Shown here piece by piece: positions 4,135-31,916 of a stretch of DNA of 64,000 bases. A program made the translations under genes and the position numbers. The stretch comes from Leptolyngbyaceae cyanobacterium. GTDB taxonomy: Bacteria > Cyanobacteriota > Cyanobacteriia > Phormidesmidales > Phormidesmidaceae. Where the stretch lies: the NCBI GenBank assembly GCA_050331235.1, contig JBHJHA010000036.1:32001-96000 (forward strand), given 5' to 3'. The notes under the pieces are model-generated. The model saw only the letters and a program-made list of their open reading frames with translations. It searched no databases and was not told the DNA's origin. Position 1 is the first letter of the stretch. Each line of letters opens with the position of its first letter.

Positions 4135-4150
4135 TCATTGGAAGGACACC

Positions 4151-5074: not shown

Positions 5075-5081
5075 AACTGAC

Positions 5082-6377: not shown

Positions 6378-6411
6378 GTTGTTTCAGCAATATAATTGGC
6401 GAGGAATAATC

Positions 6412-7446: not shown

Positions 7447-7489
7447 CGCATGTAAGTGATATGTGGGGTTTTGTCGCGGAGTGATGATA

Positions 7490-8335
7490 ATGCCATCTGA
7501 AATTGTATATACGCCGGATAGCCTGCTACGTCGACCGCGGTTTTTGTTAAAGATGATGTGGCGCGATTTATTAGCGTCTCGTGAACTTGCCTGGCGGCTC
7601 ATGGTGCGAGACATCAGTGCCCAATATCGACAAGCCGCCTTGGGTATTGTGTGGGCATTCATTCCGCCGATCGCGATGGCGCTGGGCTTTACCCTGGCCA
7701 AAGATGCCAATGTATTCACGGTGGGCGAGACGGATATTCCGTATCCAGCCTATGTCATGTTGAATACCGCACTGTGGCAAACGTTTACCGAGGCGGCTAC
7801 CGGACCCGTGCAGGCAGTTATCCAGGCAAAGCCAATGCTAGCGCGGGTCAACTTTCCCCGCGAGGCTCTCGTGCTTGCCAAGTTGGGAGAAGTCGGATTC
7901 AACTTTGGGATCAAGCTCATCTTGATTACTGGCCTGTTTCTATATTTTCGGGTGCCGGTTAGCTGGACTATTTTGTTGACCCCAGTGGCACTGGTGCATT
8001 TGATTATGCTGGGAACCTTGGTCGGCATTCTTTTAGCGCCCATTGGTGTGCTCTATCAGGATGTTTCCAAAAGTCTAAATATGGTTATGGGATTCTGGCT
8101 GTTTCTAACGCCAGTGATTTATCCGGTGCCCACGGAGGGGCTGTTTGGCGCACTTGTGGCACTCAACCCTGTTACGCCGTTACTGGTTACCCTCCGAGAA
8201 CTCGCGACAACGGGCCTATTGTCCAATTCGACTGGCTTCTGGGTGGTAAGCGCTTTGACTTGGCTAGGTTTATTACTGACTTGGGTTGGCTTTCGTATCG
8301 CGATTCCTTACGTTGTCGAGAGGGTGACGTCCTAA
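7490..8335 (+). CDS. Polysaccharide ABC exporter permease (Wzm/RfbA-like)
   Basis: RDISAQYRQAALGIVWAF, FLTPVIYP, LNPVTPLL; about 6 hydrophobic segments. Confidence 0.9.
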   Translation: MPSEIVYTPDSLLRRPRFLLKMMWRDLLASRELAWRLMVRDISAQYRQAALGIVWAFIPPIAMALGFTLAKDANVFTVGETDIPYPAYVMLNTALWQTFTEAATGPVQAVIQAKPMLARVNFPREALVLAKLGEVGFNFGIKLILITGLFLYFRVPVSWTILLTPVALVHLIMLGTLVGILLAPIGVLYQDVSKSLNMVMGFWLFLTPVIYPVPTEGLFGALVALNPVTPLLVTLRELATTGLLSNSTGFWVVSALTWLGLLLTWVGFRIAIPYVVERVTS

Positions 8336-9658: not shown

Positions 9659-9670
9659 TGGGTATTTCAC

Positions 9671-10597
9671 ATGGCTTCTCAACCCCAGCTAAGCATTATC
9701 ATTCCAACCCATAATCGACCTCAGCTACTGCCGATCGCTGTGCGGAGTGCGCTGGCTCAGACTTATCAAGACCTTGAGGTCGTCGTAGTGGATGATGCTT
9801 CGACCGAAGTGGCCCAGCTGCCGGACGATCGCCGTTTGCGGGTGATCCGATTGACCACAGGGGTCGGCGGAGCGGGTGCTCGCAATGTTGGTACCGAAGC
9901 CGCACGGGGACGATGGATCACGTATCTGGATGATGATGATTATTTGCTGCCGGAAATGGCTGAAATCTCCCTGGCGGCCTTGGCTAAACAACAGGGTGAT
10001 GGGCCAGTGGGGGTGATTTCGGGTATCAGGAAAGTCGATGAATATGGCAAAGTGCTGTCAACGCGATTGCCGCCTGACTGTTGCCCCCAGGGACGTCATT
10101 TTTTCCTAGAGCCTCTGCCGATTGGCCGCTCATACCACACAAAGCAAACGTTGGTTGTTGAGAAGAATATCGTGCTGAAAATTGGCGGCTGGGACGAAAC
10201 CTTCCGCTCCCGAGTACATTCTGAGTTTTTCCTCCGATTAAATCCTGTTTGCAAAATCGTTGGCTTGCCGACGGTGACGTATCATTTGCTGTCTCATTCA
10301 GGCAGTCGTGTTTCGGGTAACTCCGATTTGCGCCAAGCCAGTTTCACACAACTGATACAAAAGCATAAAGGTATTTTTTCCGCCCATCCCAAAATGTTCG
10401 CAGAGTTTGTCTATAAGCACGCGCTGAAATCTTACGAAGTGGGACAGGTCCGCTCAGCGATCTCGCATCTGTTCTGGGCGCTCAGACTCCATCCACGCCA
10501 TATTGCCGGTTTGCTGAAATGGTCAGTGGGGTCACAGTTCAATCAAACAATTCAATCGTCCCAGTTACCCTCAAAGACTGTGCCACCTAGCGAATAG
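9671..10597 (+). CDS. Glycosyltransferase family 2
   Basis: SIIIPTHNR, VVDDAS, ARNVG, YLDDDD. Confidence 0.9.
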   Translation: MASQPQLSIIIPTHNRPQLLPIAVRSALAQTYQDLEVVVVDDASTEVAQLPDDRRLRVIRLTTGVGGAGARNVGTEAARGRWITYLDDDDYLLPEMAEISLAALAKQQGDGPVGVISGIRKVDEYGKVLSTRLPPDCCPQGRHFFLEPLPIGRSYHTKQTLVVEKNIVLKIGGWDETFRSRVHSEFFLRLNPVCKIVGLPTVTYHLLSHSGSRVSGNSDLRQASFTQLIQKHKGIFSAHPKMFAEFVYKHALKSYEVGQVRSAISHLFWALRLHPRHIAGLLKWSVGSQFNQTIQSSQLPSKTVPPSE

Positions 10598-10648
10598 CCT
10601 GGGCCGCGCTCTTTTCTGGCATGACTTGATAATTATGCGGAGATTTCT

Positions 10649-12193
10649 ATGATCATTGATATTTTGGATCTTGAAGATCAACAACGACTGAAAGGACAGA
10701 TCGTCGTTGTGGGCTCTGGCATCGCCGGTGCAGAAGTTGCAACGTTTTTGGCCCGCCATAGCCGTGAAGTCATCTTGTTGGAAAGCGGTCGCGATCGTTT
10801 TGACCCCAAAATTCAAGCCCTCAACGATGTTGTTTTTCTGAGCAAGCGACATCGTGAAATGAATCCTGACTCTTACTATCATCGCTATTTGCCACCAGAA
10901 CTTAGAGGGGTTAGCCGAGTGCGCCAATTTGGTGGCACTAGCAATGTGTGGACGGGCAAATGGAAACACTTGCAAACCAGTGACTTTGCGGGACGCGACT
11001 GGGTGCCTAACAGCGGTTGGCCCATTGGCTATGAGGACTTGCTGCCCCACTACCGCTCTGCGGCTAAGGATTATGGTTTTGGCGATCTGGAAGCTGAAGC
11101 TCGCCGCCGAGAAATTGTCACCTTACGAAATCAAATTGCTGCCCACGGACTGAAAATGAGCAGCTTTTATTGGGAGGAAACACCGACCCGCACGGCTAAA
11201 CGGTTTGGCGACGAAATGCGGCGATCGCCTAACCTACGGGTCATTCTGGGTGCTACCGTCAATGAACTACGCTTAGATGAGGCTGGTGAACGGGTAACCA
11301 CAGTCGCCTGTAGCTCATTGGAAGGTCGCGAACTGATTGTTGAAGGGGATACCGTTGTGCTGGCCACCGGTGCATTCGAAGCGGCTCGTATTCTGCTTGC
11401 GTCGGATCGCCAGGTGCCTAATGGGATTGGCAATGAGCATGATCTGGTTGGCCGATTTTATACGGACCATCCCAAACACCATACGGGAACGCTCACGCCG
11501 GGGGCTCTGACACGCCAGTATGCTAACGAACTGCAATATGCACCCAAGCCTCGCTTCTGTATCTGTTTTGCGCTGGATGATGCTACGCAACAGCAGTATG
11601 AACTGCTGGAGCACGTTTTGTATCTAAAACCTCTCTACGAGAAGACCAAGGACCGTCTCAGTCGAATTATCCGTAGACGACCACTCTGTGTTGATCGCAA
11701 TGGCGCGATCGCGGCTTACAAGGTGAAATTTGTCACCGAGCAGGTGCCCCAGCAGTCGAGCCGGATCAAACTCGGGACCGAGCGCGATGCACTGGGTCAG
11801 CGCAAGTTAGAAGTCGACTGGTGCTTCACTCAGCAAGATCATCGGTCATTAGAGAAGACCCTTGCTCTAATGACTGAGAGATTTCAAACAGCTGGGTTAG
11901 GTCACTTTAACTTTGGAAATGAGCCTCCCAGCCTTGAAAATATGACTGATGCGGCCCACCAAATGGGCACAACCCGTATGGCCAGTTGCTCTGACGCTGG
12001 CGTTGTGGATCTCGACTGCCGAGTCTTTGGTACTGATAATTTGTATGTTGCTAGCTCAGCGGTCTTTCCCACCGGGCCTTCCTACTCCCCAACCTTTACG
12101 ATCCTGGCGCTGGCTCGTCGGTTAGGCCAACATCTGCTACAGACGACTGTCCAGTCTGTGAATGACTTACAGGTGAGTCCTGCCACTTTGTAA
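10649..12193 (+). CDS. GMC-family oxidoreductase
   Basis: VVGSGIAG, FGGTSNVW, AAHQMGTTRM, GVVD.DCRVFGTDNLYVASSAVFPT. Confidence 0.88.
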   Translation: MIIDILDLEDQQRLKGQIVVVGSGIAGAEVATFLARHSREVILLESGRDRFDPKIQALNDVVFLSKRHREMNPDSYYHRYLPPELRGVSRVRQFGGTSNVWTGKWKHLQTSDFAGRDWVPNSGWPIGYEDLLPHYRSAAKDYGFGDLEAEARRREIVTLRNQIAAHGLKMSSFYWEETPTRTAKRFGDEMRRSPNLRVILGATVNELRLDEAGERVTTVACSSLEGRELIVEGDTVVLATGAFEAARILLASDRQVPNGIGNEHDLVGRFYTDHPKHHTGTLTPGALTRQYANELQYAPKPRFCICFALDDATQQQYELLEHVLYLKPLYEKTKDRLSRIIRRRPLCVDRNGAIAAYKVKFVTEQVPQQSSRIKLGTERDALGQRKLEVDWCFTQQDHRSLEKTLALMTERFQTAGLGHFNFGNEPPSLENMTDAAHQMGTTRMASCSDAGVVDLDCRVFGTDNLYVASSAVFPTGPSYSPTFTILALARRLGQHLLQTTVQSVNDLQVSPATL

Positions 12194-12203
12194 GGAGCTA
12201 ATA

Positions 12204-12701
12204 ATGCTTTCAGAATCTACTACTCAGGCAACCAGTACTCCTACTCGAGCCTTGCTACTGACTAAGTTCGCCCTGGCTATCCTAATTTTAGGAATCTGTG
12301 TGGTCGGTAAGCGGGAGTCTACATGGCCAATTACTACTTGGGCCCTGTATAGCGGCTACTCTGCCCGTTTTCGCATCCCTGAGCCCACTGTTTCTGAGAT
12401 TCAATTACAAGTGTTAACCGCCGACGGCAATGCTCACCTTGTTAAACCTGAGCTCATCCTCTCTCTACCCTATGACAGTCTGGCCCATAGCGTCGTTGAG
12501 CAGGCCTTTTTAGGTGAAGATCCTCGTGTCAAGACCGCAAGTCAACGATATTTAGCTAAGGAAATTGGGAAAATTGAAGCTATTCAAGCAGAAATTGATG
12601 AAATACAGGCTTGGAAAATCACCTATCAAACTTACCCTTTACAGATTCCGCCGATACATAAAGATAATCCCCAGTCCAGGGACATGATTGGCAGTTTTTG
12701 A
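12204..12701 (+). CDS. Hypothetical membrane-anchored protein, partner of the downstream HTTM-like protein
   Basis: AGGAG RBS; N-terminal TM followed by WPITTWALYS. Confidence 0.65.
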   Translation: MLSESTTQATSTPTRALLLTKFALAILILGICVVGKRESTWPITTWALYSGYSARFRIPEPTVSEIQLQVLTADGNAHLVKPELILSLPYDSLAHSVVEQAFLGEDPRVKTASQRYLAKEIGKIEAIQAEIDEIQAWKITYQTYPLQIPPIHKDNPQSRDMIGSF

Positions 12702-12736
12702 GTTAACAAGATTAAGACCTCCGTTACTACCGAGCC

Positions 12737-13918
12737 ATGAAAAGAGATAGGGGAGATCGCTTTAGTATTAGGTTGAATTCCTGGTTGTTACAGCCTGAAC
12801 CTAATGCTGCTGGCAATATGGGACTTTGCAGAATCGTATACTCTCTGTTTTATCTTTGGTACTTGAGTACCCATTCTTCTGCCTTTCTGAGCGGGATGCC
12901 CAGCTTTTTTGTTGAGCAGAGAGTTTATTTGTTTAGATATATTTTTGCGGATTTTGGTGCATCTTGGTCGCCATTGGTCTTTCAAACGATTGAGTCTTTG
13001 CTAGTCGCATGTCTGATTTTGTTAGTCTTTGGATATAAAACTCGCTGGACTACAGCGGGAGTCTTAGTTTTAGGGTGCCTGCTAGAGGGGCTATCGAGTG
13101 CGATCGATTCCAAGAGAACGCTGCTGCCGCTCGTATTTTATGTGCCTTTTTTTATGACTCTAGCCAACACTTGGGGAAAGACTTATTCACTAGACGCCTT
13201 AATACAGGAACGTCGATTAAGTGTGAAAGTTGATCCTCATGCTGATGATGGCTTTTTCTTTCTACCCGCCCGTGCACTGTTGATTATCTTTTCGGTGCAG
13301 TTTTTCGTCTCGGCGATTTTTAAGGTGGCGTTTGGGGGAGCTTGGCTCAGCTACTCGGACATAATGGCCAACTTTTTTTTGAATCGGAATATTGAGGCAG
13401 CCATCTATGATCTACCCTTGAACTGGTTCGCTCCTCTAATCTCGAAAACACCAGTCATTTATCTTTCAATACATCTGACAACGCTGGTGTTTGAATTTGG
13501 TTTCTTTCTGTCTTTGATTAATAGAAAACTCAGAGACTTAATCATTTCTTTGGCGCTGATTTTTCATGCCGTGAACGCTTTGTGGCTCGTGGTTACAGTG
13601 ACGCCGATTTTGGCAGGATATTTGCCTTTTGTGAATTGGCAAAATGTTAAGGATCGGATGCCAGTTTCCTTGGTAGAAAAAAGCATTTTTGAAAAGCTAC
13701 CTTTAAGTTCGTCGATCTTTGGAATACTTTTCCTAGCCTCATTTGTTGGTTTGCTTTGGCATAGCCCAGTCGATATTAGAAGCTGCCTGAATCTCTTCGG
13801 AGTTATTAACTGGAGAACAATCTGGCTATTGGTTTTACCACCTGCTGCATACTGGTTTGTGGCTACGCTGATCCATTTTCGGCAGCCGGTTAGTAATTCA
13901 ACTTCGACTGCTGCGTAG
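12737..13918 (+). CDS. HTTM-like polytopic membrane protein
   Basis: Multiple TMs; GLCRIVYS, YSLDALI, FFVSAIFK..G.AW, FEFGF...LALIFH pattern. Confidence 0.6.
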   Translation: MKRDRGDRFSIRLNSWLLQPEPNAAGNMGLCRIVYSLFYLWYLSTHSSAFLSGMPSFFVEQRVYLFRYIFADFGASWSPLVFQTIESLLVACLILLVFGYKTRWTTAGVLVLGCLLEGLSSAIDSKRTLLPLVFYVPFFMTLANTWGKTYSLDALIQERRLSVKVDPHADDGFFFLPARALLIIFSVQFFVSAIFKVAFGGAWLSYSDIMANFFLNRNIEAAIYDLPLNWFAPLISKTPVIYLSIHLTTLVFEFGFFLSLINRKLRDLIISLALIFHAVNALWLVVTVTPILAGYLPFVNWQNVKDRMPVSLVEKSIFEKLPLSSSIFGILFLASFVGLLWHSPVDIRSCLNLFGVINWRTIWLLVLPPAAYWFVATLIHFRQPVSNSTSTAA

Positions 13919-13980
13919 TATTGGCTGTTCGTAGACACCAGTTGAGGGGCATCGTATATTAACTCAAAGATTTTTTGGCT

Positions 13981-15204
13981 ATGGTTTCTATTCAAGCGCC
14001 GTTTAGACTGGATTTGCGATCGCTCGCTGTATTTCGCATTGGTTTAGCAATAAGTTTCATTGTATTGGCCTGCATAGATGATGCTCCTGGCTTGGTAGAA
14101 ACTGCTGGCCTTTGGCAAAGATGGGACTCCCTATTCGTCATTTCAGAAACCCTGGAAAAGTTCGGTCAGTACTTACTGACACCCTTACTAAGCCTTGTCG
14201 GTATCGTGCTGCTCGTCGGCTATCGGGCTAAAGTTGTTTTGTCTATCGGGCTGTTCCTGAGTGGGCTGGCATACTTTTTGAATGTTGGCTCTTTTCCCGA
14301 GTTAGAGCCTCTGTTCTTGCCGATAGTGTTTTGGAGTTGGTTTTTGCCCTTGGGCGCAAACTTCTCTTTCGATAGTGCGATGAATACCGCTATCCCAAAA
14401 ACGTTTGAGATTGTTTCAAGTGCTACGATCGCTCTGGCGCTGCAACAATGTTTCAATTACTGGATGCCCAACTCATCGTTCCTGGCCTTTGGTACGGAGA
14501 GTACTAGCATTCATAGCCTGCTGCTGCTGATTTTTCTGTTAGCAGCATTGACTTTATTGATGCCCTTACAGTCGGCAACTTTACGTGCAGTTCTGATCAA
14601 TGGATTTGTGCTTTTACATTTGCTTGCATGGCTGTTTTGGGGGCAGCCTATTCAGGTCGCGTGGCTAGCGATCTCGATCTGGCTAGCATTTTTACCTACC
14701 ATCGTTTGGGAATTTTTGGAAAAACGATTGCAAACCTCACAAAGAGAGGGATTAGTCGTTTACTATGATGCCGACTGTGGCTTTTGTAAGAAAGTCGTGC
14801 ACGTTTTACGTGCTTTCCTCATCTTGCCGGGGACACCACTGTTGACAGCCCAGAGTGATGACTCAATTTGTGCTGATATGGAGGCCTATAACTCTTGGGT
14901 GGTGGTTGACTGGCAGCAACGCCGACACTTTAAATTCGAAGCGATCGCGTATATCTGCAGTCTGTCTCCTATTTTTCGCATTTTGGTTCCACTGTTGCGC
15001 TGGTCACCTGTGATGTCAGTCGGGACTCGCTTTTATGAGATGATCGCCAAAAATCGTAAGCAAGCTGGCCTGTTTACCCGTCCCCTCAAGTTCAACGCGT
15101 ATTCGACTCGCTTATCTACAACAGAAAATTTCATGGTGGCAGTTCTGGCTACCATTTACTTCCTCATTATTACTGCCAAAATTGTGAGCTATTTAGCTCT
15201 TTAA
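13981..15204 (+). CDS. HTTM-like/DCC1 (DUF393) thiol-disulfide oxidoreductase fusion
   Basis: N-terminal LDLRSLAVFRIGL and FWSWFLPLGANFSFD; C-terminal YYDADCGFC ... YEMIAKNR. Confidence 0.75.
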   Translation: MVSIQAPFRLDLRSLAVFRIGLAISFIVLACIDDAPGLVETAGLWQRWDSLFVISETLEKFGQYLLTPLLSLVGIVLLVGYRAKVVLSIGLFLSGLAYFLNVGSFPELEPLFLPIVFWSWFLPLGANFSFDSAMNTAIPKTFEIVSSATIALALQQCFNYWMPNSSFLAFGTESTSIHSLLLLIFLLAALTLLMPLQSATLRAVLINGFVLLHLLAWLFWGQPIQVAWLAISIWLAFLPTIVWEFLEKRLQTSQREGLVVYYDADCGFCKKVVHVLRAFLILPGTPLLTAQSDDSICADMEAYNSWVVVDWQQRRHFKFEAIAYICSLSPIFRILVPLLRWSPVMSVGTRFYEMIAKNRKQAGLFTRPLKFNAYSTRLSTTENFMVAVLATIYFLIITAKIVSYLAL

Positions 15205-20409: not shown

Positions 20410-20868
20410 TTACACCTTCAACAGTACTTGGTCGCCTTCAATTTTGGCCTCATAGGTTTCAAGCGGATCGGTTGCGGGACCGGACGCAACTGAGCCATCT
20501 GGGTTGAAGCTGGAGCCGTGGCAGGGACAGGTAAATGCGCTTGCTTCCCAGTCGACACTGCAGCCCTGATGCGTGCATAAAGAATTGACAGCAATCAAAG
20601 CATCGGCGTTGTTGGGGTCGCGGGTGACAACAAATTGGGTTCCACGAAAGTCTTTATCAGAGAGGGTCCCCGACGCATCGAGTTCGGATACCGAGCCGAT
20701 AGCGACAAAGCCATCTTCGCGGGGGGCCGAATCTGCGGCGGCGGTATCATCGGTAGCTTCAGTATCGCTGGTTGAGGTCGGGTCTGACTGACAGGCGGCG
20801 ATCGCGACCGGCAAAGAAGTTGCCAGCACCCCCACGCCCATCCAGTTGACAAAGTCACGTCGATTCAT
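20410..20868 (-). CDS. Tat-exported Rieske [2Fe-2S] lipoprotein (PetC3-like)
   Basis: MNRRDF twin-arginine signal, IAAC lipobox, CTHQGC and CPCHGS boxes. Confidence 0.9.
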
Positions 20869-20901: not shown

Positions 20902-22596
20902 TTACAAAGTATCGGCCGATGTCAATATTTGGGCGCGTTTCCAACCGCCCCAGCGGCGGAGGGCAGTGACACCGACCAATAGCAAGTCGGCACTGACGAC
21001 CCCGGCAATTAACAGCTCCGAGCCGCCGGTGCCAAAGCCGTAACTATGTAGACCTGTGCCCAGTACAAAGTTGACGCCATACCAAGCCATCAGCACAGCA
21101 TTGAATGACACAATGCTAGCGACATGGATGCCGAAGTCACCGATCCAGCCGACTAAACGCCCATGCAGAGGGGCAAGGTAGCAAAGCAAGGCTATGAGCG
21201 CCCAGGTTTCCTTTGGATCCCAACCCCAAAAGCGACCCCAAGAAAAATGAGCCCAAATCCCCCCGAGGATAATGCCAGCGGTGAGTAATAGCACCCCGAC
21301 TTGCAAAACGCGGTAGTTGAGCTGGGATAGAACTTTGAGGCGCTGGCTAGCCTGGGGGGTAAACAGATAATTGAATAAAGCTACATGGCCGACTCCCAGT
21401 GCCAAAGCGAAACTCGCATAGCTGAGGGTGATGGTGGGAACGTGGATGCTGAGCCAAAAGTTATCTCGCAGTACAGGCACTAAGGGCGCAATGCTCGGAT
21501 CGAGTACGGCGGGCAAACTGTCAGCTAACACCAAACAAACCACGGAGAGGGGGGCGGCGGCCAATAGGTAAAACCGCTTGCGAGAAAAGACCTCCAGCAA
21601 CAGGGCGATCGCCGTAATACCAAAACCACACCACACCACTGATTCGTACATGTTGGTGACCGGTGGGCGATCGGCAATCTGCATCCGCAGGAAAAAGCCG
21701 TAGCTTTGGACTGCAATCCCCGCTGTAAATAATCCAATGGCTGACCAGTAAATGGGCCAGCGCTGCATCCACTGACTGGTCAACAGCACCACAAAGGCGA
21801 TCGCATAGAGCTGCCAAGCTTTAGCAAACGGATGGAAATGGTTGAAATGGACTTCGCGCGCCATGATGCCATCAGTGGGATAAACTCCAGGACTAAGCTG
21901 CTGAAGTCCTGACTTAAGATCGGTGGTAAAGGCGCTAATCATGGGCACATGGGTCAAACCGCCTTGCAACAGTGCCTGCTGCATCGTGGTAAAGGTGGCG
22001 AGGAGAGGCGCCACCGACTCGGGACTGTAGAGCTGGGTAGCTCCCTCCAAGCCGACCCACTTACCTTTGCGATCACTGGGGTGGGGCACAATTGGTAAGC
22101 CACGATCGCTGACTGACTGATACAGCAGATTGAGCCGGTCTTCAACAGTCAAAGCTTCTCGTTCATTGCGACTGAGATCGAGCTCATTCAGTTCCTTTTG
22201 ATGGGCGCTGCTGACAATGGTCCCGAGTTCTCGATTTGCCATCAATTCCTGAAAGCTGAAATGTTTACGCTCGAGGGACAGTCCAGCCACCTCCTTTAAG
22301 GGCCGATAGTTTACCAGCACAAAAGGTTCCTCATTCCAGTTGCGAGTGTTGAACCACATCGCGAGATAAGTGCTGAGCGCTCTTTCGCGGGTGCCATCGG
22401 TGTGTTTATAAGTGGTTGAACCGTTGATTTTGGCGACGGTTTCCTGGGCCACCGTATCCAAGGGCTTCTTCCGTCCGTCTAGCTGCACTGCGAGCGATCG
22501 CAGCGACGCTAATCCATCCGGTTGCCACTGACTGACGGGCAACACCAGTAGCAAGCAACCAAGAATTAAACCGATGAAAAACGTAATCAGTTTCAT
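20902..22596 (-). CDS. ccsA: System II cytochrome c synthase CcsA-like protein with long N-terminal extracytoplasmic domain
   Basis: WWD domain WAHFSWGRFWGWDPKETW, PVLRDNFWLSIH, GLHSYG, PVTNMYES; N-terminal GRKKPLDT. Confidence 0.9.
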   Translation of the reverse strand: MKLITFFIGLILGCLLLVLPVSQWQPDGLASLRSLAVQLDGRKKPLDTVAQETVAKINGSTTYKHTDGTRERALSTYLAMWFNTRNWNEEPFVLVNYRPLKEVAGLSLERKHFSFQELMANRELGTIVSSAHQKELNELDLSRNEREALTVEDRLNLLYQSVSDRGLPIVPHPSDRKGKWVGLEGATQLYSPESVAPLLATFTTMQQALLQGGLTHVPMISAFTTDLKSGLQQLSPGVYPTDGIMAREVHFNHFHPFAKAWQLYAIAFVVLLTSQWMQRWPIYWSAIGLFTAGIAVQSYGFFLRMQIADRPPVTNMYESVVWCGFGITAIALLLEVFSRKRFYLLAAAPLSVVCLVLADSLPAVLDPSIAPLVPVLRDNFWLSIHVPTITLSYASFALALGVGHVALFNYLFTPQASQRLKVLSQLNYRVLQVGVLLLTAGIILGGIWAHFSWGRFWGWDPKETWALIALLCYLAPLHGRLVGWIGDFGIHVASIVSFNAVLMAWYGVNFVLGTGLHSYGFGTGGSELLIAGVVSADLLLVGVTALRRWGGWKRAQILTSADTL

Positions 22597-22686
22597 AGGG
22601 CCAGCGATATTCAACAAAGATCAGGGCTATAAATTTGCGTGGGCGATCGCCCGGTGAACGGTTGTGGTGACAGTGCGATGCATTCG

Positions 22687-24498
22687 TTACTTGCCAAACA
22701 CCGCTAAAATTGGAATTGTTCCGCCAGTTTCCTCGGGCACCTCTTCCGCGACCGATGGGGCCTCGTCGGGGGAGGGCGATCGCCACCATTGGCGCCACCG
22801 CTTGAGCAAACTAGGTCCGTAAAACATGGTGGCGATACCCAGGACGACCAGCAACGAGCCGGTCCAAGTCAGGGCCGTGACCCACCAAGGTTCGCGCTTG
22901 AGCTGCAGAGTTGACTGCTGCAGGTCCCCCGGATTCCAAGACGCTTGGGCGAGCTTCCAACCCCGAAACCAAGTGGGGTGATTCATCCATACTGAGCGCT
23001 GTACTGCCGTATCCGTTTGCGGGTCAAACAGGGTCAAATCACTGGTCCACATGGCGACCGACTCGCTACCCTCGTTGCGCTCCACGATGAAATCGTTTAG
23101 CTTGACGTAAAACGGTAGCTCGAGCAGCTTGGGGCTAAACGCGGCAAAATATTGCCCAGCACTGGTTTCGAGGACTTTTGGTTCTCCCCAGGGGAGCCAA
23201 AAGTCCTCGCCCTCGGCGGTCGCTATGTGCAGCGCCGGAGTCCCTTCATTCGGGCGGGCATTGGCTGCAACCGGCATCACCGGTACAATCTGTCGCTGCA
23301 CCTGTGCGTGGTCAAGTTGTTCGACCAGCGTAATTTGAAAATCGGCCCAGCCCGGAATGACGGCTTCCCCGGGCTGGAATTTGCCCGTGCTGAAACCCTG
23401 GGCAGACGCGGCGGCGAAATACAGGTCCTGCCCAGGCGTTGTCACGATGCGAAAATAATCCGTAGGAGTCGCTACCGGCGGCTTATAGGCGATCGCTATC
23501 TCAATCCCGTCGTCCGAGCGTACCGGAGGCAGCCCTGGGTTGCCAAAGACAAACCATCGTTCCTGTTGACTTTCCTGGGAGACTAACAACTGCACCGCTG
23601 GATTGCGAAACTGCTCGGAGGCTGATGTGGGCTGCCCATCACCATTCAGGCGAAAATCGGGCCAGACAGCGGTGACTTCGACGTTGGTCCCCTCCTCCAA
23701 CGTGAGGGACTGTCCCTGGATTTGAGCGATATCAAAGTGGCGATCGCGCTGCTTAGCCGCAACGATGGCTATCTCGCCGAGGGGATGCTCAACCTCGGCG
23801 GGTGGACTCAACCACCGCTGCTGCTCAGCAGCATCGCCGACGGACACAATTTCAAAATGGGCAGGACCGATGTCTAACTGGCTATATCCTGCGGGAGCGA
23901 CGGCTAGCCAGCGGTCCAACGTTTGACCCATGCGATCGCTGTGCAGCTGAATCTTGACGGCTGGATTAGGAACCGTGCCCGTATTGTCAAACGCGACGGT
24001 CTTGATGGCGTTGTCGCTATAGCCCAGCAGCGAGAGCCCCGCAAATTGCTGAGGATATACTGACCCATCAGAACGCACAAAAATATCACTTTGCTGGCGG
24101 GTGCGATCGGGTGCAACGACTTCCAGCAGGTCACCCTGAATGCGAATTTGGGACCCTGGACCAGCATCCGTGCGTACGAGCAGCATCCCTTCCGTACTGA
24201 GATGAATTACAGCGGCTGAGCCAGCGATGATGATGACTAGGCCCCAGTGGGTTAAGGCAAAGCCCACCTTGCGGGGACCTTTCCAAGGCCAGCGGTTCAG
24301 GGTCGAGAGACCCAAATTAACTGCTAACAAAAACATCAGAGCGCCAAACCAAGCGCTCTTATAAATCTCTCGTTGAACGGTGAGTGGACCCACATTTGAT
24401 TCATAAAAAGTAGCACCAATCAAGATGACAGAAATCACTGTCAAGAGTGGTACTGCTAATCGAATAGAGCCTAAATATTGGATGAGTCGAGACTTCAT
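22687..24498 (-). CDS. ResB/CcsB-like cytochrome c biogenesis protein
   Basis: LGSIRLAV, IYKSAWF..L..LLAVNL, GFALTHWG (conserved His), MNHP..FRGWKL.QASW, C-terminal TM. Confidence 0.85.
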   Translation of the reverse strand: MKSRLIQYLGSIRLAVPLLTVISVILIGATFYESNVGPLTVQREIYKSAWFGALMFLLAVNLGLSTLNRWPWKGPRKVGFALTHWGLVIIIAGSAAVIHLSTEGMLLVRTDAGPGSQIRIQGDLLEVVAPDRTRQQSDIFVRSDGSVYPQQFAGLSLLGYSDNAIKTVAFDNTGTVPNPAVKIQLHSDRMGQTLDRWLAVAPAGYSQLDIGPAHFEIVSVGDAAEQQRWLSPPAEVEHPLGEIAIVAAKQRDRHFDIAQIQGQSLTLEEGTNVEVTAVWPDFRLNGDGQPTSASEQFRNPAVQLLVSQESQQERWFVFGNPGLPPVRSDDGIEIAIAYKPPVATPTDYFRIVTTPGQDLYFAAASAQGFSTGKFQPGEAVIPGWADFQITLVEQLDHAQVQRQIVPVMPVAANARPNEGTPALHIATAEGEDFWLPWGEPKVLETSAGQYFAAFSPKLLELPFYVKLNDFIVERNEGSESVAMWTSDLTLFDPQTDTAVQRSVWMNHPTWFRGWKLAQASWNPGDLQQSTLQLKREPWWVTALTWTGSLLVVLGIATMFYGPSLLKRWRQWWRSPSPDEAPSVAEEVPEETGGTIPILAVFGK

Positions 24499-24560
24499 AT
24501 TTAGAAGAGATACCGCAGAAACTCGTATTCCAAATCATTCATTCGCTTTCCAATAGTTTT

Positions 24561-24628
24561 TGTAAAAAGCATCACAAAAATAAATTAATTGGTGCGGAAA
24601 GCGATCGTGACCCATGCGAAAACCGCAT
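24561..24628 (-). promoter_or_regulatory. Leftward promoter: NtcA-like box plus LysR (NtcB-like) palindrome
   Basis: Minus strand GTG-N8-TAC at 24575-24562; perfect ATGCG-N5-CGCAT at 24614-24628; centres 52.5 bp apart. The -10 at the N22 position is only AATGAT. Confidence 0.55.
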
Positions 24629-24752: not shown

Positions 24753-24847
24753 ATGCATTTATTGCATCGAATCAATGCGTTAAGCGTATGGTTTTTATGG
24801 GAATTGTGCTTGGTTTTACAAAACAAGAAATATACCTTCTCTATTGT
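24753..24847 (+). promoter_or_regulatory. Rightward promoter: LysR (NtcB-like) palindromes, NtcA-like box and -10
   Basis: ATGCA-N5-TGCAT (24753-67), second ATGCG-N5-CGTAT (24775-89), GTG-N8-TAC (24806-19), then N22, then TATTGT (TAN3T, 24842-47). Confidence 0.7.
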
Positions 24848-25128: not shown

Positions 25129-26150
25129 ATGGTTTCAAGTACGAATGACGCGTCTGAGGAGAAAGGATTACAGGTTAGCTATTGGAGCGTAGCTTTGAGA
25201 AGGTGACTCCCCGAGCCGATGATTTTGTAGCGAGCTTTTACAGCAATCTATTCGCTGATTATCCAGACGCGAAGCCGCTGTTTGCCCACACCAATATGGC
25301 TAAGCAGCAGAAAATGCTGCTGGAATCTCTTGTCTTTGTTGTCGAGAATTTGCGCCAGCCCGAGGCTTTGTCGGGGGCTCTTCAGGGCCTCGGTGCCCGG
25401 CATATGAAATATGGGGCGCTGCCTGAGCATTATCCGTTGGTGGGCAACTCGCTGCTCAAAACGTTTAGCCAGTACTTGGGAAATGATTGGACTCCAGAAA
25501 CTCAGCAGGCTTGGGCTGAGGCTTATGGAGCGATTACGATGCTCATGTTGGAGGGGGCCGATTACGCCCCAGAGCAAGTCCAGTTGGAGCCGCCGGCTGA
25601 GGTGGATGAAGCCACAGGACTCAAGATTCAGCTGCTGGAAGAGAGCTTTGGTAAGGTGGCTCCCCAGGCTGATGCGTTTGTCGGCAGTTTTTACGACAAC
25701 TTATTCACGGACTACCCAGCCGCTAAGCCTTTATTTACCCATACCAATATGGGCAAGCAGAAAAAGATGCTGCTGGAGTCTTTGGTGTTTGTTATCGAAA
25801 ACCTGCGCCAGCCCGGGAAACTGACCGAGGCTTTGAAGGGGCTCGGCACTCGCCATGTGCAGTACGGCGCTTTGCCCGATCACTATCCGCTGGTGGGCAA
25901 CTCGTTGCTCAAGACCTTTGAGCAGTACCTCGGTAGTGACTGGACTGATGAAGTGAAGCAGGCCTGGGTGGATGCCTATGGTCTTATCACAACGGTCATG
26001 TTGGAAGGCGCTGATTATGATCGAGCCTCTGTCCAGCTACCCTCTACAGCTACGCTCGAAGCGCCAGAAAGCAACATCAATATGGGGGCAGCAGCCGGTA
26101 TTGCTGGCGGCGGCCTGATTGCCTTGATTGCGCTGATCTTGCTGGTCTAA
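25129..26150 (+). CDS. Tandem two-domain globin (flavohemoglobin/Vgb-type globin fold) with C-terminal TM anchor; apparent 1-bp frameshift at about 25177
   Basis: Two near-identical domains (FY..LF.DYP.AKPLF.HTNM.KQ.KML; LG.RH..YGALP.HYPLVG) and a hydrophobic tail. ATG 25129 with RBS is out of frame with the body, which is open only from TTG 25182. Confidence 0.85.
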
Positions 26151-26177: not shown

Positions 26178-26822
26178 ATGGCTTTGAGAAGCCGAATACT
26201 GAGGGGGCGATCGCTCCTGACTCTGAGAACGGCAATCGTCCTCGTTTGCATTATCCTGGTGGGCTGGTTTGGTGCGGCGTTTGCCCTGGACAACAAGCAG
26301 GCGTTCTTGCCAGGGGAGACCTCAGTCGGTCACTACCTGTTTGAAACGTCCTGCAGTTCTTGTCACGAAGGGTTTAAGCCCGTGAGTAACGACACCTGCA
26401 TGCGCTGTCATGAGGCGGAGATGGCTGAGGATAAGCACGGTGCGGCTAAGTTCCGGGATCCTCGGTGGGCGGGGGAGCTGCAAAAGATTGAAGCGCTGAC
26501 TTGCACCACTTGCCATAACGAGCATGTCCACATGTTTGGACGGGGGGTCCATTTGCAGCCCGATCTATGTATGAACTGCCACCAAGGCATCATTGAGGGC
26601 GATCTCAAGAGTCATGACGGCTTTGCCGCCGATGGGTGTTGGACGGCGGGCTGCCACAACTACCACGATCACCGCTCAATTTCGACTGGGTTTTTGATTG
26701 AAAATGTTGACCAACCGCCCATGCTGCCGGTGCAGCTGTTACCTGATCGAATCGTTTTAACCCAGGTGTATAGGGCACCGAGTCCTGATCTAAGTGACGC
26801 CTTTTTGCAAGGGGGGGCATGA
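26178..26822 (+). CDS. Pentaheme cytochrome c (4 CXXCH + 1 CX4CH), N-terminal TM/signal
   Basis: CSSCH, CMRCH, CTTCH, CMNCH, CWTAGCH. Confidence 0.88.
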   Translation: MALRSRILRGRSLLTLRTAIVLVCIILVGWFGAAFALDNKQAFLPGETSVGHYLFETSCSSCHEGFKPVSNDTCMRCHEAEMAEDKHGAAKFRDPRWAGELQKIEALTCTTCHNEHVHMFGRGVHLQPDLCMNCHQGIIEGDLKSHDGFAADGCWTAGCHNYHDHRSISTGFLIENVDQPPMLPVQLLPDRIVLTQVYRAPSPDLSDAFLQGGA

Positions 26823-27631
26823 TGTTGCAGCGACTCTGGGGTCGAGCGATCGCCCTGATGGTATTGCCGCTATTGCTATTGGGCAATGGGGGCCTGCCAG
26901 CCCAGGCTAACCCTGTTGATCGCGCTCAAGTTGAGACCGTTACTCAGCTTTGGCAAACCAGTGCCCATGCCCTGAATGAAATTAACTGCTCCAGTTGTCA
27001 TGAATCATCCGCGACTCAGGAATTTGTGGCCCGCCCGGGCGTCGAAAGTTGTCAATCCTGTCATCAGCAAGACGTCGATACCTTCTTACTCGGTAAGCAC
27101 GGCATTCGGCTGCTGGAGGGTGATACGCCCCTCACGCCCGCGATGGCTCGTCTGCCGATGCAGCCCGACGTGATGAACCAGCCCATGACCTGCAATAGCT
27201 GTCACGACGTTCACTCGGTCAATACCATGCAGGCGGCGGTCGATTCTTGCTTGGGGTGCCACAGCGACTCGCACTCGTTGAACTACGGTGATTCCCGCCA
27301 TGCGGACCTGTTTGCCGCTGATCGCGACTTGCCGCGCCCCTCGGCGACCTCGGTGAGCTGTGCTACCTGCCACCTGCCGCGTCATCAGACTGGGACGGGC
27401 GATAGCGCAGTTACGCTGATCAATCACAACAATACCTACACGCTGCTCCCCCGCGATCGCATGGTCAAGGACGTGTGCATGAATTGCCACGGTATGGAGT
27501 ACAGCTACAACAGCATTTTTGACGATGACCTCGTGGAGGCAAATTTTAACGCCCCACCGACCCTTGCCCTAAAAACTTTTGACCTTGTCCGGGCGTTTGA
27601 AGAGCGTCGCACTGATCAGGGTGAGAGTTAG
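26819..27631 (+). CDS. Hexaheme cytochrome c, exported
   Basis: Signal peptide ending AQA; CSSCH, CQSCH, CNSCH, CLGCH, CATCH, CMNCH; ATGA overlap with the upstream gene. Confidence 0.9.
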   Translation: MMLQRLWGRAIALMVLPLLLLGNGGLPAQANPVDRAQVETVTQLWQTSAHALNEINCSSCHESSATQEFVARPGVESCQSCHQQDVDTFLLGKHGIRLLEGDTPLTPAMARLPMQPDVMNQPMTCNSCHDVHSVNTMQAAVDSCLGCHSDSHSLNYGDSRHADLFAADRDLPRPSATSVSCATCHLPRHQTGTGDSAVTLINHNNTYTLLPRDRMVKDVCMNCHGMEYSYNSIFDDDLVEANFNAPPTLALKTFDLVRAFEERRTDQGES

Positions 27632-27776
27632 GGCGATCGTCAAATTCAACGTTCGCATCGACGAACAATTGCGCACATCGCGATCGCATCACCTTCGCAC
27701 AATTTCACGTTTCACGTTTGGCAGTTTCTGATTCTAAACAGAGGAGAAAAAGGATATGACACTTGTAGGAAGATGT

Positions 27777-28409
27777 ATGAATACCCTGCGAACTCGCACG
27801 GTCGCTTTCATCGCGATCATCATGGCGGTTGCCGTTACTGCGATCTCTTGTAGCAGCAGCGGCACAACTGCAACCGCCGCCCCCGGCATCTCGCCCGAGT
27901 TGGTGGCTGATTACATTCACACGGTTATGGAGGCTGACCGCACTGCCTATACCAAGCACGTGGTCAACCGCGCCACCATGCTAGAAGGCAAAGAAAAGGC
28001 CGACGGCGTAGTTCCGGTTGAAGCAACTGAGGCTTGGCAGCAAGGTGAGGGCATTCCCCTGCCCGCCCAAATGTTCCGTCTGGGCTCTGAGATTGCCAAC
28101 GAAAAAGGTTATTTCACTTACAACCTCATCTCACCTTGGTATATCAATGACAGCCACGCCCCTAAAGGCGAGTTTGAGGAAACCGCGGTCGAAACCATGA
28201 TCGAAACTGGTGAACCCGTCAAAGACTATCAAGAAATTGGCGGGCAGCAGTACTTCTCGGCGATGTACCCCGACAAGGCGGTGGCTGAGGCTTGTGTATC
28301 TTGCCACAACACCCATCCCATTCACCTGGAGCGCTATCCCGATAAGCAGTTCGAGATGGACGAGGTGATGGGCGGCATCGTCATCAACATTCCCCTAGAG
28401 GGAGCCTAA
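27777..28409 (+). CDS. DUF3365 (Tll0287-like) monoheme c lipoprotein
   Basis: Lipobox AISC, PLPAQMFR, PDKAVAEACVSCHN, GGIVINIPL; alternative start at 27756. Confidence 0.85.
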   Translation: MNTLRTRTVAFIAIIMAVAVTAISCSSSGTTATAAPGISPELVADYIHTVMEADRTAYTKHVVNRATMLEGKEKADGVVPVEATEAWQQGEGIPLPAQMFRLGSEIANEKGYFTYNLISPWYINDSHAPKGEFEETAVETMIETGEPVKDYQEIGGQQYFSAMYPDKAVAEACVSCHNTHPIHLERYPDKQFEMDEVMGGIVINIPLEGA

Positions 28410-28647: not shown

Positions 28648-29376
28648 ATGAGTAGATCGCCTCGACCTCAGCATGTAGATCCCCCGTCTAATCAGCACTC
28701 CATCGAGTCACATGAGCCGCGGGTGGCCGATGCGGTGGCGGCGATCGCCCCCCAAAGGCAAAGGGCCTTTAAGCCGCGGGGTATCAAACCCAGCTTTAAG
28801 GTCCTGATCGGCCTGACATTGCTGACAGCGCTGCTGCTGACCCCATTTGTCGTGAGTGATCTATATCTCGATGCGCTTAGGGCGCGATCGTTTGATTTGC
28901 ATCAGTTTATCCGGGGGGAACTGTACAAGCAGTCGACCGGCTACGGAGCTTTGGTCTTGGTGTTAGTTGAGATGCTACTGACGGTGCGCAAGCGCGGTGG
29001 TGGCTGGCTGGCTCGGATCAAACTGCCAGGCTCAATGTTGATATGGCGGAGTACCCACATTTTTCTGGGCGTAGGGTTGCTGGGATTAGTGCTGGTGCAT
29101 ACTTTGGGCGCTAACGGCCTGAACTTTAACGCCATCTTTCTCTGGGTATTTTTTGCGACGACTTTGACGGCGTTGGTCGGCGTGGTCGCTGAAACTGGCA
29201 TTTTGGAATCCACCCAGAGCTACTTTGGCAAACTGCCGGGGTCAAACGTGGCTTTAACGAAAGGGCCACTCATTCGCGGGTTGAGAGCCATTTGGCTGAC
29301 TAGCCATATCTTTTTTGTGGCTGTCTTTGGTGTGATGCTGATTTTTCACATTGCGCTGGCTTACTACTATCAGTGA
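28648..29376 (+). CDS. Integral membrane protein, putative di-heme b (ferric-reductase-like TM) subunit
   Basis: About 5 TMs; two His pairs each 14 residues apart (STHIFLG...LVH; SHIFF...IFH). Confidence 0.7.
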   Translation: MSRSPRPQHVDPPSNQHSIESHEPRVADAVAAIAPQRQRAFKPRGIKPSFKVLIGLTLLTALLLTPFVVSDLYLDALRARSFDLHQFIRGELYKQSTGYGALVLVLVEMLLTVRKRGGGWLARIKLPGSMLIWRSTHIFLGVGLLGLVLVHTLGANGLNFNAIFLWVFFATTLTALVGVVAETGILESTQSYFGKLPGSNVALTKGPLIRGLRAIWLTSHIFFVAVFGVMLIFHIALAYYYQ

Positions 29377-29464
29377 AGACGCTGACTTATTTAGCACGCT
29401 GGTTGGGTAAACGGGTGGAGTCTTGGGTGTCGCATTTTGTGTTGGTGTATTACGGATAGAGGCT

Positions 29465-29995
29465 ATGACGGATCAAATTCGTTTGTTGGAAACCAGTTTT
29501 GCCCAGGTCCGACCTAAGGCGATGGCCTTCTCAGATTGTTTTCACCGCCATTTATTTCAAAACCATCCAGACATCGAGCCCATGTTCAGCGACGTGAGCC
29601 TCGAATTGCAAGAAAAAAAGCTGATCGCTTCCCTTGCGCTCATTGTTGAAAATTTGCATAACCCGGCGGCTTTAGCCCATGCACTTCAAGCCTTGGGGGC
29701 CTATCACGTGACCAAGGGAACCCTGGCAGAGCATTACCCCTATGTGGGGCAGGCCCTGATGCAGGCCTTTGCCGAATTTTTGGGGGATGAATGGACGCCT
29801 GCTGTCGCTGAGGCGTGGCAGGCGGCCTATCGCACGATTTGCGATTTGATGCTGGAGGGGGCGGAGCATCCCCAAGCGTATCTAGAGGGTGAGCTGACCT
29901 TTTATGAATGGCTAGATCTATATGGCGAGTCTAGTCCGACGTTACACAAGCTTGTGGAGTCGACCACCCACTTTAAATATGGCGCTAAAGGGTAG
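29465..29995 (+). CDS. Single-domain globin with C-terminal extension
   Basis: LLETSFAQV, LQEKKLIASL, LGAYH, EHYPYVGQAL, WTP.VAEAW..AY. Confidence 0.85.
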   Translation: MTDQIRLLETSFAQVRPKAMAFSDCFHRHLFQNHPDIEPMFSDVSLELQEKKLIASLALIVENLHNPAALAHALQALGAYHVTKGTLAEHYPYVGQALMQAFAEFLGDEWTPAVAEAWQAAYRTICDLMLEGAEHPQAYLEGELTFYEWLDLYGESSPTLHKLVESTTHFKYGAKG

Positions 29996-30051
29996 CGGCG
30001 TTGATGCAGACCTTTTGACCAAGCGATTTGATATTGATGGAGTCGGTAGTG

Positions 30052-30528
30052 ATGACGGTGAATCGAGGTTCTGACAACCCAGCGATGAATCGGGGCAGCC
30101 GGTGGGCGATCGTGATAATTGCCACCTTTGCGATCGCCGCATTTTGGCTAACTCGTCCGGTAGCGGATGCCCATTTTTCTCCGGTATCTGGCCTAATGTC
30201 GTTGAAAGCCAGTGCTCAACAGGCGATGCCCTATCAGGTCGCAATGCACAATGGCAAGCCGACGCTGATTGAGTTTTACGCTGACTGGTGTACCACCTGC
30301 CAGGGGATGGCCCCTACCTTGGCGTCTATCCACGAGCAATTGGGAGGGTCTGTCAACTGGGTAATGCTGGATATTGATGATCCCCAGTGGCGCGACCAGA
30401 TACAGCAGTTTCACGTTACCGGTGTGCCCCATCTGGTTCTGCAAACGGGGCAGGGGGCGATCGCTGACAGTTTTGTGGGTAAGGTACCCGGGCCCATTCT
30501 CTTACGGAGTATTGAGCAAATGTTCTAG
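30052..30528 (+). CDS. Membrane-anchored thioredoxin (TxlA/HCF164/CcsX-like)
   Basis: TM segment then EFYADWCTTC and GVPH; start uncertain (30037/30052/30085). Confidence 0.85.
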   Translation: MTVNRGSDNPAMNRGSRWAIVIIATFAIAAFWLTRPVADAHFSPVSGLMSLKASAQQAMPYQVAMHNGKPTLIEFYADWCTTCQGMAPTLASIHEQLGGSVNWVMLDIDDPQWRDQIQQFHVTGVPHLVLQTGQGAIADSFVGKVPGPILLRSIEQMF

Positions 30529-31034: not shown

Positions 31035-31916
31035 ATGTCAATCCGATTTCAACTTTGGGGTTGGGGCTGGGCCCTCGCGGGCACGTTGCTAATCACCGCA
31101 CCCGCCTGTTCTGGCGATGAGGCGATCGCCCCGCAGTCAACGCCGATGGTCCTCTCTAGTACTGAGGATGACGCCTTTCAAGCCTTACAGTCAGCCGATG
31201 TAGTTTACTTAGGAGAACGGCACGATAGCCCCCTTGACCACGCAGCTCAACTAGAGATCATTAAGGCCCTTTATGCCGCCGATCCAGAGATTGCGATCGC
31301 CCTAGAGATGTTTCAGCGGCCCTTTCAACCGGTGATTGATCGGTATCTAGCGGGAGATATTTCCGAGGCAGCCCTAGTCAAGCAGACTGAATACCAAGAA
31401 CGTTGGGGCTTTCCCTGGGAGTTTTACGCGCCGGTCGTGCGGTTTGCCCAGGCCCAAGACCTGCCTGTGCTCGCACTGAATGCCCCCGCGGAAATCACCC
31501 GACAAATTGCCCGCGAAGGGCTTACTAGCTTATCCGGCAATGACTTTCGCTATATTCCACCGGTTGAGGCGATCGACACCACTAACCCAGACTACCGCGA
31601 CTTTGTCACCGCTGCGTTTGGTGCTCACGGGGCCCACGGAGATTTTAATTTCGACAACTTTTTTGCGGCGCAGGTGACCTGGGACGAAACGATGGCCATG
31701 ACCATTGCTGAGTTTAAGGCCGATAATCCCGATACTCAGGTCGTCGTATTGGCGGGTAATGGACACGTGATCTACGGCTGGGGCATTCCTGACCGGGTAC
31801 AGCGCCGACTGGGCGAGGAGCTGATACAGCAAATTGTGGTGCTGAATCCGAGTCCTGAGGTGGAGCAGGCAAAGGGGGCGATCGCCGATCTCTTTTGGTA
31901 CAGCGAAGGGCCATAG
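31035..31916 (+). CDS. ChaN-family (heme-binding, iron-regulated) lipoprotein
   Basis: Lipobox-like PAC, VVYLGERHD, ALEMF, AQVTWDETMA, VLAGNGH..YG.GIP.RV.RR. Confidence 0.88.
   Translation: MSIRFQLWGWGWALAGTLLITAPACSGDEAIAPQSTPMVLSSTEDDAFQALQSADVVYLGERHDSPLDHAAQLEIIKALYAADPEIAIALEMFQRPFQPVIDRYLAGDISEAALVKQTEYQERWGFPWEFYAPVVRFAQAQDLPVLALNAPAEITRQIAREGLTSLSGNDFRYIPPVEAIDTTNPDYRDFVTAAFGAHGAHGDFNFDNFFAAQVTWDETMAMTIAEFKADNPDTQVVVLAGNGHVIYGWGIPDRVQRRLGEELIQQIVVLNPSPEVEQAKGAIADLFWYSEGP

Follow-up and report, generated by a model that had tools for sequence, protein, structure and literature searches.

Two overlapping genes in a Leptolyngbyaceae cyanobacterium encode eleven c-type heme motifs between them, and the locus raises the question of whether they specify two proteins or one, and of what such an assembly would do in an oxygenic phototroph, where an exported system of twelve c-hemes with its own maturation genes is unexpected. 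They lie on a stretch of 64,000 nucleotides (assembly GCA_050331235.1, contig JBHJHA010000036.1, positions 32,001 to 96,000), the whole of which is referred to here as the window. Gene A (26178..26822, + strand; 214 aa) encodes a membrane-anchored pentaheme c-type cytochrome with four CX2CH sites and one CX4CH site, and gene B (26819..27631, + strand; 270 aa) an exported hexaheme cytochrome. The present analysis identifies the two as the N- and C-terminal halves of a protein that other bacteria make as a single undecaheme chain, with B a pruned core of the HAO type, and it supports, at a probability of roughly 0.45, a model in which a nitrate-induced chain would carry electrons outward to reduce nitric oxide (NO) or nitrite outside the cytoplasm.

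Genes A and B and the single-chain undecaheme

The five motifs of A (CSSCH59, CMRCH74, CTTCH109, CMNCH131 and CWTAGCH154, the last followed by NYHDHR) and the six CXXCH motifs of B (at 57, 78, 125, 144, 181 and 220) account for every cysteine of the two proteins with the sole exception of A-C24, in the membrane anchor, and shuffled versions of A and B (5000 each) held a mean of 0.05-0.07 motifs and at most 2. No CXXCK occurs in A, in B or in 150 homologue representatives. The TGA of A and the ATG of B overlap as ATGA, and a stop/start overlap was present in 18 of 18 intact relatives examined (13 ATGA, 2 GTGA and 3 one-base). Each protein begins with one hydrophobic stretch, a helix at 19-37 in A and residues 10-28 in B, the latter ending in an AxA-like site at which B is presumably cleaved. 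The inventory given by an earlier, sequence-only reading of the window (five plus six heme motifs, an ATGA overlap, one CX4CH, no CXXCK, and an export or anchor sequence for each gene) was borne out in full by motif and reading-frame checks. A and B also resemble one another as internal duplicates might (BLAST E 5e-7; hhalign probability 96), in differing registers, and this may be the generic resemblance of paired CXXCH motifs.

The sequence-only reading had further proposed that the two genes are a split undecaheme protein, and end-to-end comparison upholds this. A followed by B tiles 43 of 43 longer single-chain homologues (12 found with A and 31 with B; 30-43% identity), and the predicted model of a fused homologue, built from 120 sequences, folds as a single unit (pLDDT 91.1, pTM 0.88); the split is considered real because of these two results. 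At least 446 GTDB stretches encode relatives, and the best 80 of these, on which all genome counts out of 80 are based, come from Planctomycetota, Verrucomicrobiota, Pseudomonadota, Poribacteria and others. One of the 80 lacks a complete open reading frame (ORF), and all 79 complete ORFs have ten CX2CH sites and one CX4CH site, a count that is partly circular, as the scan pattern included part of the CX4CH site. Four motifs named in the earlier reading as occurring together in single-chain proteins (GCHN.HD, FL.GKHG.RL, TP.MARLPM and VSCATCH.PR) do co-occur in these homologues. The nitrate-assimilation setting that it proposed for Proteobacteria was supported, though the carriers reach well beyond that phylum: 42 of the 80 loci have, no more than 10 kb away, a gene for a nitrate transporter or a nitrate reductase, or one of the NasT type or NarK. 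Given this spread across many phyla, bacteria may commonly carry a nitrogen-oxide or electron-export activity that has yet to be assigned.

Among 61 related genomes, 25 carry gene B, every carrier belonging to the family of the host, and a sample of 401 genomes from across the phylum yielded gene A in 5. Of 20 cyanobacterial loci compared, 19 have A and B split at the identical place and one is a remnant; the shared junction in 19 of 19 intact relatives rules out an assembly artefact. In a quick tree of the B halves, all 19 cyanobacterial rows group with a single unlabelled protein on one branch (SH-aLRT 99), which fits a single fission event without proving it. In the Atlas, the clusters to which A and the membrane protein encoded downstream belong consist mostly of Cyanobacteriota. 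No plasmid match was found, nor was any description of the module in searches of a literature collection with few subscription papers. Two of the compared copies are decaying, one with four stops in A and no B (L124, G206) and one with a frameshifted B (L121, G016), and at another locus (L083) the module is present as two tandem copies. In one homologue (P0107) about 420 MFS-transporter-like residues precede the undecaheme in an 831-aa chain, possibly by annotation read-through.

The HAO-type core, heme ligands and the CX4CH site

B is a pruned HAO core, yet it falls outside the HAO family. Alignment with 6H5L, an HAO-like chain of Kuenenia (E 1.4e-4), pairs each of its hemes and histidines with a counterpart and leaves a gap where the catalytic heme-4 motif would fall; the core of B corresponds to HAO/ONR hemes 2, 3, 5, 6, 7 and 8, and neither the heme-4 motif nor heme 1 or its ligand is present. 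Profile matches (E 1e-10) place the first and last heme pairs of B on ONR hemes 2-3 and 7-8. With the model of mature B (pLDDT 92.1), four HAO-family chains came top of 48,161 compared (Z 9.4-9.9, 188-211 aligned), and four such chains also led a Foldseek search with the fused model, in which residues before 175 were barely covered. The HAO-like proteins (Nitrosomonas HAO 1FGJ/6M0P, Kuenenia HOX 4N4J, Kustc0458 6H5L and Ignicoccus IhOCC 4QO5) share the core fold of B (4QO5: Z 9.9, rmsd 4.0, 196 aligned; 4N4J: Z 9.6, rmsd 3.8, 188 aligned), as does the NrfA/ONR-type structure 8RV0 at Z 7.6 (rmsd 4.4, 181 aligned). However, the family has eight hemes, a five-coordinate catalytic heme 4 and a C-terminal oligomerisation bundle, together with a trimeric state and a Tyr cross-link, whereas B has six hemes and a pentaheme module grafted in front of it, and its chain stops at residue 270, 46 past the final heme, the model showing a single terminal helix. 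Apparently retained from the active site is the His of the Asp/His pair: after heme 9, H152 is invariant and occupies the position of the catalytic His of HAO, and D150 is kept in at least 90%, although the spacing is CH-x-D-x-H and the two are not adjacent as in HAO. For multiheme evolution the protein illustrates pruning clearly, as an HAO core from which heme 4 is gone.

Outside the heme motifs, A has five conserved histidines (H52, H116, H146 and H163 in 98 of 98 rows, H87 in 97) and B six (H50, H94, H132, H152, H161 and H203, each in 97 of 97), and these numbers, five and six, equal the heme-motif counts of the two proteins. By the ligand positions of HAO, B-H132 would serve heme 6, and, as the mapping predicts, 6 of the 7 natural variants without heme 6 have also lost the equivalent of this residue. 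Those ten-heme variants (P0064, P0072, P0081, P0089, P0092, P0100 and P0114) are without two or three spare histidines in all. Heme 10 presumably corresponds to HAO heme 7, which in HAO is liganded from the C-terminal region that B lacks. By this mapping, hemes 5 (CX4CH) and 10 would be without their usual ligand and A-H146 and B-H152 would be left over; the simplest pairing, of these two histidines with these two hemes, would produce an all-bis-His wire, a picture drawn from conservation and the HAO mapping. For HAO itself, PMC3814345 confirms His 2', 5', 7' and 8' and Asp267/His268 in that region, and OTR, in which the heme-7 ligand is supplied from elsewhere when the helices are absent, provides a precedent (PMC9250108).

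The CX4CH site (heme 5; 26637..26657, + strand) was the original point of interest, its heme having been put forward as a candidate catalytic or special site. All 31 homologues retrieved with B as the only query keep the motif. In the best 150 of 2063 HMMER representatives, 98 have CX4CH and 18 have CX2CH at the same position (18 of the 116 that cover the site, P0127 counted among them; the other 34 lack coverage there). Because CX2CH substitutes for it in place, the CX4CH motif very probably does bind a heme. The catalytic part of the proposal did not find support. A metagenome scan deliberately enriched for the CX2CH type gave 26 CX2CH, 53 CX4CH and 1 unmatched of 80 loci, and on these contigs, many of them short, the membrane partner was found in 19 of 26 CX2CH and 44 of 53 CX4CH loci and the heme-Cache gene in 18 of 26 and 44 of 53, respectively. 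The wide spacing appears dispensable, because loci with CX2CH retain both partners. A conserved spare histidine, A-H146, lies eight residues upstream of the motif. In hydrazine dehydrogenase the CX4CH heme is the proposed electron exit and not the active site (PMC6469936); there, the motif is at heme 3 of the octaheme core, whereas the heme-3 equivalent in B is CQSCH and the CX4CH of A lies outside the HAO core. The CX4CH heme is likely an ordinary relay at the junction of A and B and probably the least special part of the system, the stronger candidates for a special site being gene B, with heme 10 and the retained Asp/His, or the neighbouring heme-Cache protein.

Partner genes and promoter

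In the window, the + strand carries in order a tandem globin, A, B, the heme-Cache gene, a membrane protein, a second globin and a thioredoxin, while the ResB, CcsA and Rieske genes are divergent. The heme-Cache gene (27756..28409, + strand) encodes a stand-alone Tll0287-like (sCache_heme) monoheme c lipoprotein with an invariant CxxCHNxH and a near-invariant LPAQMFR, a candidate terminal or catalytic heme. It matches PF11845 at 76 bits against a cut-off of 24.1, has CxxCH in 96 of 96 rows and is only distantly related to Tll0287 itself (E 0.048). With the stand-alone sCache_heme/Tll0287 proteins it shares PF11845 above the cut-off, the CXXCH and the lack of a signalling domain, but it belongs to a lipoprotein subfamily of its own, which is highly conserved, has no conserved distal Cys and comes with fixed partner genes. 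The accessible part of a study of such proteins (10.64898/2026.02.01.703092) does not mention multiheme or nitrate partners, and its datasets may list these proteins. The membrane protein (28648..29376, + strand) has no family match above cut-off; its four histidines are invariant across all 96 rows and form two pairs, each with a spacing of 14 (137/151 and 220/234), a pattern from which a di-heme b protein is predicted.

The first gene, the tandem globin (25129..26150, + strand), has a C-terminal membrane anchor and a long frame only from TTG 25182; a related globin on contig C34 has a frame of similar length. The second, single-domain globin (29423..29995, + strand; true start probably ATG 29465) is found in 5 of the 20 relative loci, the exported thioredoxin-like protein (30028..30528, + strand), likely for apocytochrome reduction, in 19, and a ChaN-type heme-binding protein (31035..31916, + strand) is loosely linked, in 10. 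On the - strand lie a ResB/CcsB-like System II maturation protein (22687..24498), a long CcsA/ResC heme lyase (20902..22617), which is extra to the housekeeping copy on contig C94, and a Rieske [2Fe-2S] protein with a twin-arginine, lipoprotein-like N-terminus (20410..20868), each present in 17 of 20 loci. Globin, A, B, heme-Cache, membrane protein and thioredoxin occur together in 19 of the 20 cyanobacterial loci, and the three divergent genes in 17.

In other phyla, 76 of 78 loci have a homologue of the membrane protein whose end lies no more than 400 nt from the undecaheme. The 80 non-cyanobacterial loci have the heme-Cache gene in 76, a globin in 54, their own maturation (lyase) genes in 3 and a Rieske gene in none. 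At their N-terminus these membrane proteins carry the half of NirB that comprises its FAD/NADH and [2Fe-2S] domains (positions 1-466 of the model, E 5e-138). In seven members of the CX2CH branch that were tested, five have instead an FNR-type flavin unit with cNMP domains, and two have the NirB type with H-NOX; truncated globins lie near CX2CH-branch modules, and the single query by which a globin was found in 1 of 26 CX2CH loci missed both the truncated globins and H-NOX. The FNR-type input proteins (L142, L146, L155, L157 and L160) are 856-1011 aa long and have no nitrate genes nearby, and the H-NOX is fused to NADH-flavin, [2Fe-2S] and membrane protein at L144:3373-5961 and L158:3391-5979. 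At four further loci (L167, L177, L181 and L197) a single-chain undecaheme has the membrane protein and Cache gene upstream and no NADH domain match, which resembles the cyanobacterial arrangement. A small monoheme cytochrome c is found in 22 of the 80 loci (e.g., L058:7049-7444) and an alginate-export-type porin in 23; no MtrB-type conduit is among the conserved neighbours. The host genome encodes ferredoxin-nitrite reductase, and a module that replaces NirA or NirB was ruled out, as NirA is kept in 25 of 25 cyanobacterial carriers and full-length NirB in 25 of 50 other carriers tested from the 80 loci.

Upstream of the tandem globin, a double NtcB-type box (24753..24789, + strand; ATGC-N7-GCAT-N7-ATGC-N7-GTAT, one mismatch) starts 53 nt before an NtcA-type box (24806..24819, + strand; GTG-N8-TAC), and a -10 element, TAN3T (24842..24847, + strand), follows 22 nt after it. 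This geometry agrees with the solved NtcA-NtcB complex on the Anabaena nirA promoter, where ATGC-N7-GCAT-N7-ATGC-N7-GCAT precedes GTA-N8-TAC by 52 nt and a -10 element follows (10.1101/2022.10.10.511513), with one mismatch in each box here; the same box plan drives a globin/multiheme operon in the window, not nitrate or nitrite reductase. A strict composite pattern, defined from this operon's own promoter, has two sites in the 4.8-Mb genome, this one and one before nirA-narK-narB. A loose pattern, set after the strict result was seen, has three sites genome-wide. Of 20 cyanobacterial upstream regions, 15 contain it, with the distal NtcB half-site, where base shuffles would give 0.007, the regions being kin and not independent; three of the remaining regions have a proximal NtcB half-site. 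The NtcA box with 22 nt and TAN3T is found in 18 of 20 regions, while a strict NtcA-only count is weak (10 of 20 against 4.0). The operon likely belongs to the NtcB/NtcA regulon and is likely induced with nitrate assimilation, and the promoter points to nitrate or nitrite conditions as those under which the system should be looked for. According to the title of one study, NtcB is reportedly tied to nitrite activation in Synechococcus. The third loose-pattern site (L127:4358; G000 C16:28357, + strand) has no + strand gene close behind it and may be due to chance or to a small RNA. Nearer resB, at about 24555-24570 of the window, a second ATGC-N7-GCAT with a relaxed NtcA-like box may serve the divergent maturation operon.

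Electron flow and competing explanations

In the proposed model, A and B would come together again on the outer side of the cytoplasmic membrane as a single electron wire of mostly bis-His hemes, and electrons would pass from a cytoplasmic reductant to the membrane di-heme, then to A, through the CX4CH relay at the A/B junction to B, and finally to the Cache heme. The reductant would be NAD(P)H in heterotrophs; in cyanobacteria, where the membrane protein is without a flavin domain, ferredoxin is a guess. Outward flow is favoured because two unrelated NAD(P)H-input folds are fused to the same membrane domain. At the Cache lipoprotein, NO or nitrite would be reduced outside the cytoplasm, the favoured job being removal of NO formed during nitrate or nitrite use, while the tethered globin may carry out O2-dependent NO oxidation inside. 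Counted in favour of this model are the tiling, the pTM of the fused homologue, the match of spare histidines to hemes, the constant membrane partner, the Cache gene, the globins and H-NOX, and the promoter pattern shared with nirA. In Bradyrhizobium, nitrate assimilation leaks NO and is paired with a globin (PMC4724949).

Several observations, however, weigh against it. The family is not tied to nitrate everywhere, because a nitrate gene is found within 10 kb in only 26 of 47 loci with full flanks and in 0 of 10 CX2CH loci longer than 9 kb (10 of 21 long CX4CH loci, the groups consisting of kin). A globin is missing from 26 of the 80 genome loci by one query, and the tandem globin of the window lacks one base near 25176 relative to three relatives, either by assembly error or by a real frameshift. 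Two of the 20 upstream regions have no match to either composite or half-site, and the ntcB gene was not identified: a LysR-domain search gave 12 matches, and the NtcB-like one of these, L130, has no NtcB-named model among the 25 matches listed. Nor is the histidine count proof of full ligation, because the seven ten-heme variants also lose the His expected for heme 7 (three lose one more) and a twelfth His varies by lineage (A H165 in cyanobacteria, H183 in fused forms). Finally, stand-alone sCache_heme is described as binding NO weakly and looks like an electron carrier (10.64898/2026.02.01.703092), though the Cache protein here is only a distant relative of Tll0287.

Other explanations are less likely. 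The module may be a second, siroheme-free nitrite reductase that forms ammonium outside the cytoplasm, its active site being either a five-coordinate heme 10 or the Cache heme docked at the retained Asp/His. The NirB-derived input half feeding an HAO/ONR-derived multiheme, and an NtcB-type promoter common to nirA, would suit such an enzyme, as would the in vitro nitrite or NO reductase activity shown by all members of the fold family (PMC9250108), the equation of heme 10 with HAO heme 7, deprived of its C-terminal ligand (a numbering partly backed by PMC3814345), and the retained H152 and D150. Yet the carriers keep NirA and often full-length NirB, CXXCK is absent, the histidine count fits full ligation, and OTR demonstrates another source for the heme-7 ligand where the helices are lacking, all of which leaves this explanation doubtful. 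It is similarly unlikely that an HAO scaffold without a catalytic heme of its own has its Asp/His site completed by heme 10 or the Cache heme and, fed by the NirB half or by ferredoxin through the di-heme membrane protein, acts as a siroheme-free periplasmic enzyme converting NO or nitrite to ammonium. If true, many marine heterotrophs would have a branch of nitrogen assimilation that has gone unrecognised, and the NtcB regulon of cyanobacteria would gain a new arm.

Alternatively, the chain might only be co-induced with nitrate use and export its electrons to an acceptor outside nitrogen chemistry (chelated Fe(III), O2 to give superoxide, or a redox sink). In its layout of two His pairs, each spaced by 14, and an NAD(P)H input, the membrane protein resembles ferric reductase, NOX or MsrQ proteins, without a family match, and ChaN, the porin and a CX2CH branch without nitrate genes would fit; however, NtcB-type control, the repeated recruitment of globins and H-NOX, and the absence of an MtrB-type conduit from the conserved neighbours render this improbable. 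An inward chain in cyanobacteria, in which an exported Rieske protein or another periplasmic donor feeds the wire and re-reduces the tethered globin after NO dioxygenation, would explain why the globin is the first gene and tail-anchored in most loci, why the Rieske gene accompanies it and why the cyanobacterial membrane protein has no flavin domain. It is also a slim prospect, as all 80 non-cyanobacterial loci lack the Rieske gene, many lack a globin and the homologues bear their own NAD(P)H input. Least probable is that the CX4CH heme of A is the catalytic or gas-binding site: its prevalence, the invariance of G158, N161 and D164 in 98 rows (partly chosen on this motif), its tracking of nitrate genes and Vgb-type globins and the adjoining dedicated heme lyase speak for it, whereas CX2CH occurs in intact modules, H146 can take the sixth position, hydrazine dehydrogenase uses such a heme as a proposed exit, and other phyla rarely have lyase genes of their own.

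Comparison with described systems leaves the module as an apparently undescribed system made of known kinds of parts; A/B is not NrfA/ONR, hydrazine dehydrogenase, MtrA or NrfH. Unlike NrfA and ONR, A/B has no CXXCK and no NrfH or NrfB partner, its input is of the NAD(P)H and not the quinol type, and its regulation is assimilatory. No NapC/NirT domain was matched in A at E 0.05 in Pfam or NCBIfam, which separates it from the NapC/NrfH quinol dehydrogenases, and the MtrA/DmsE decaheme model TIGR03508 scores 42 bits against a cut-off of 192, with no conserved MtrB-type porin partner. OmhA (6QVM) and OcwA also have eleven hemes and belong to the same superfamily (OmhA: Z 5.3, rmsd 4.4, 164 aligned; A hemes 2-4 weakly match OmhA 429-503), but OmhA is a 681 aa S-layer protein of iron respiration with two five-coordinate hemes (PMC9250108). 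In Bradyrhizobium narK-bjgb-flp-nasC, a single-domain globin and a flavoprotein that remove NO are co-regulated with nitrate assimilation (PMC4724949), and the globins behind a nirA-type promoter pattern resemble the Bjgb-Flp unit, by sequence only. That unit is wholly cytoplasmic (PMC4724949), whereas here the membrane heme protein and twelve exported c-hemes are constant and the globin is accessory; a separate cytoplasmic NAD(P)H flavoprotein is not conserved in the 20 cyanobacterial loci and is fused to the membrane protein elsewhere. Elsewhere in the window, positions 2644-15204, where GC is lower (0.44-0.51), hold glycosyltransferase, ABC export, GMC oxidoreductase and HTTM-like genes, labels assigned from reading the sequences alone.

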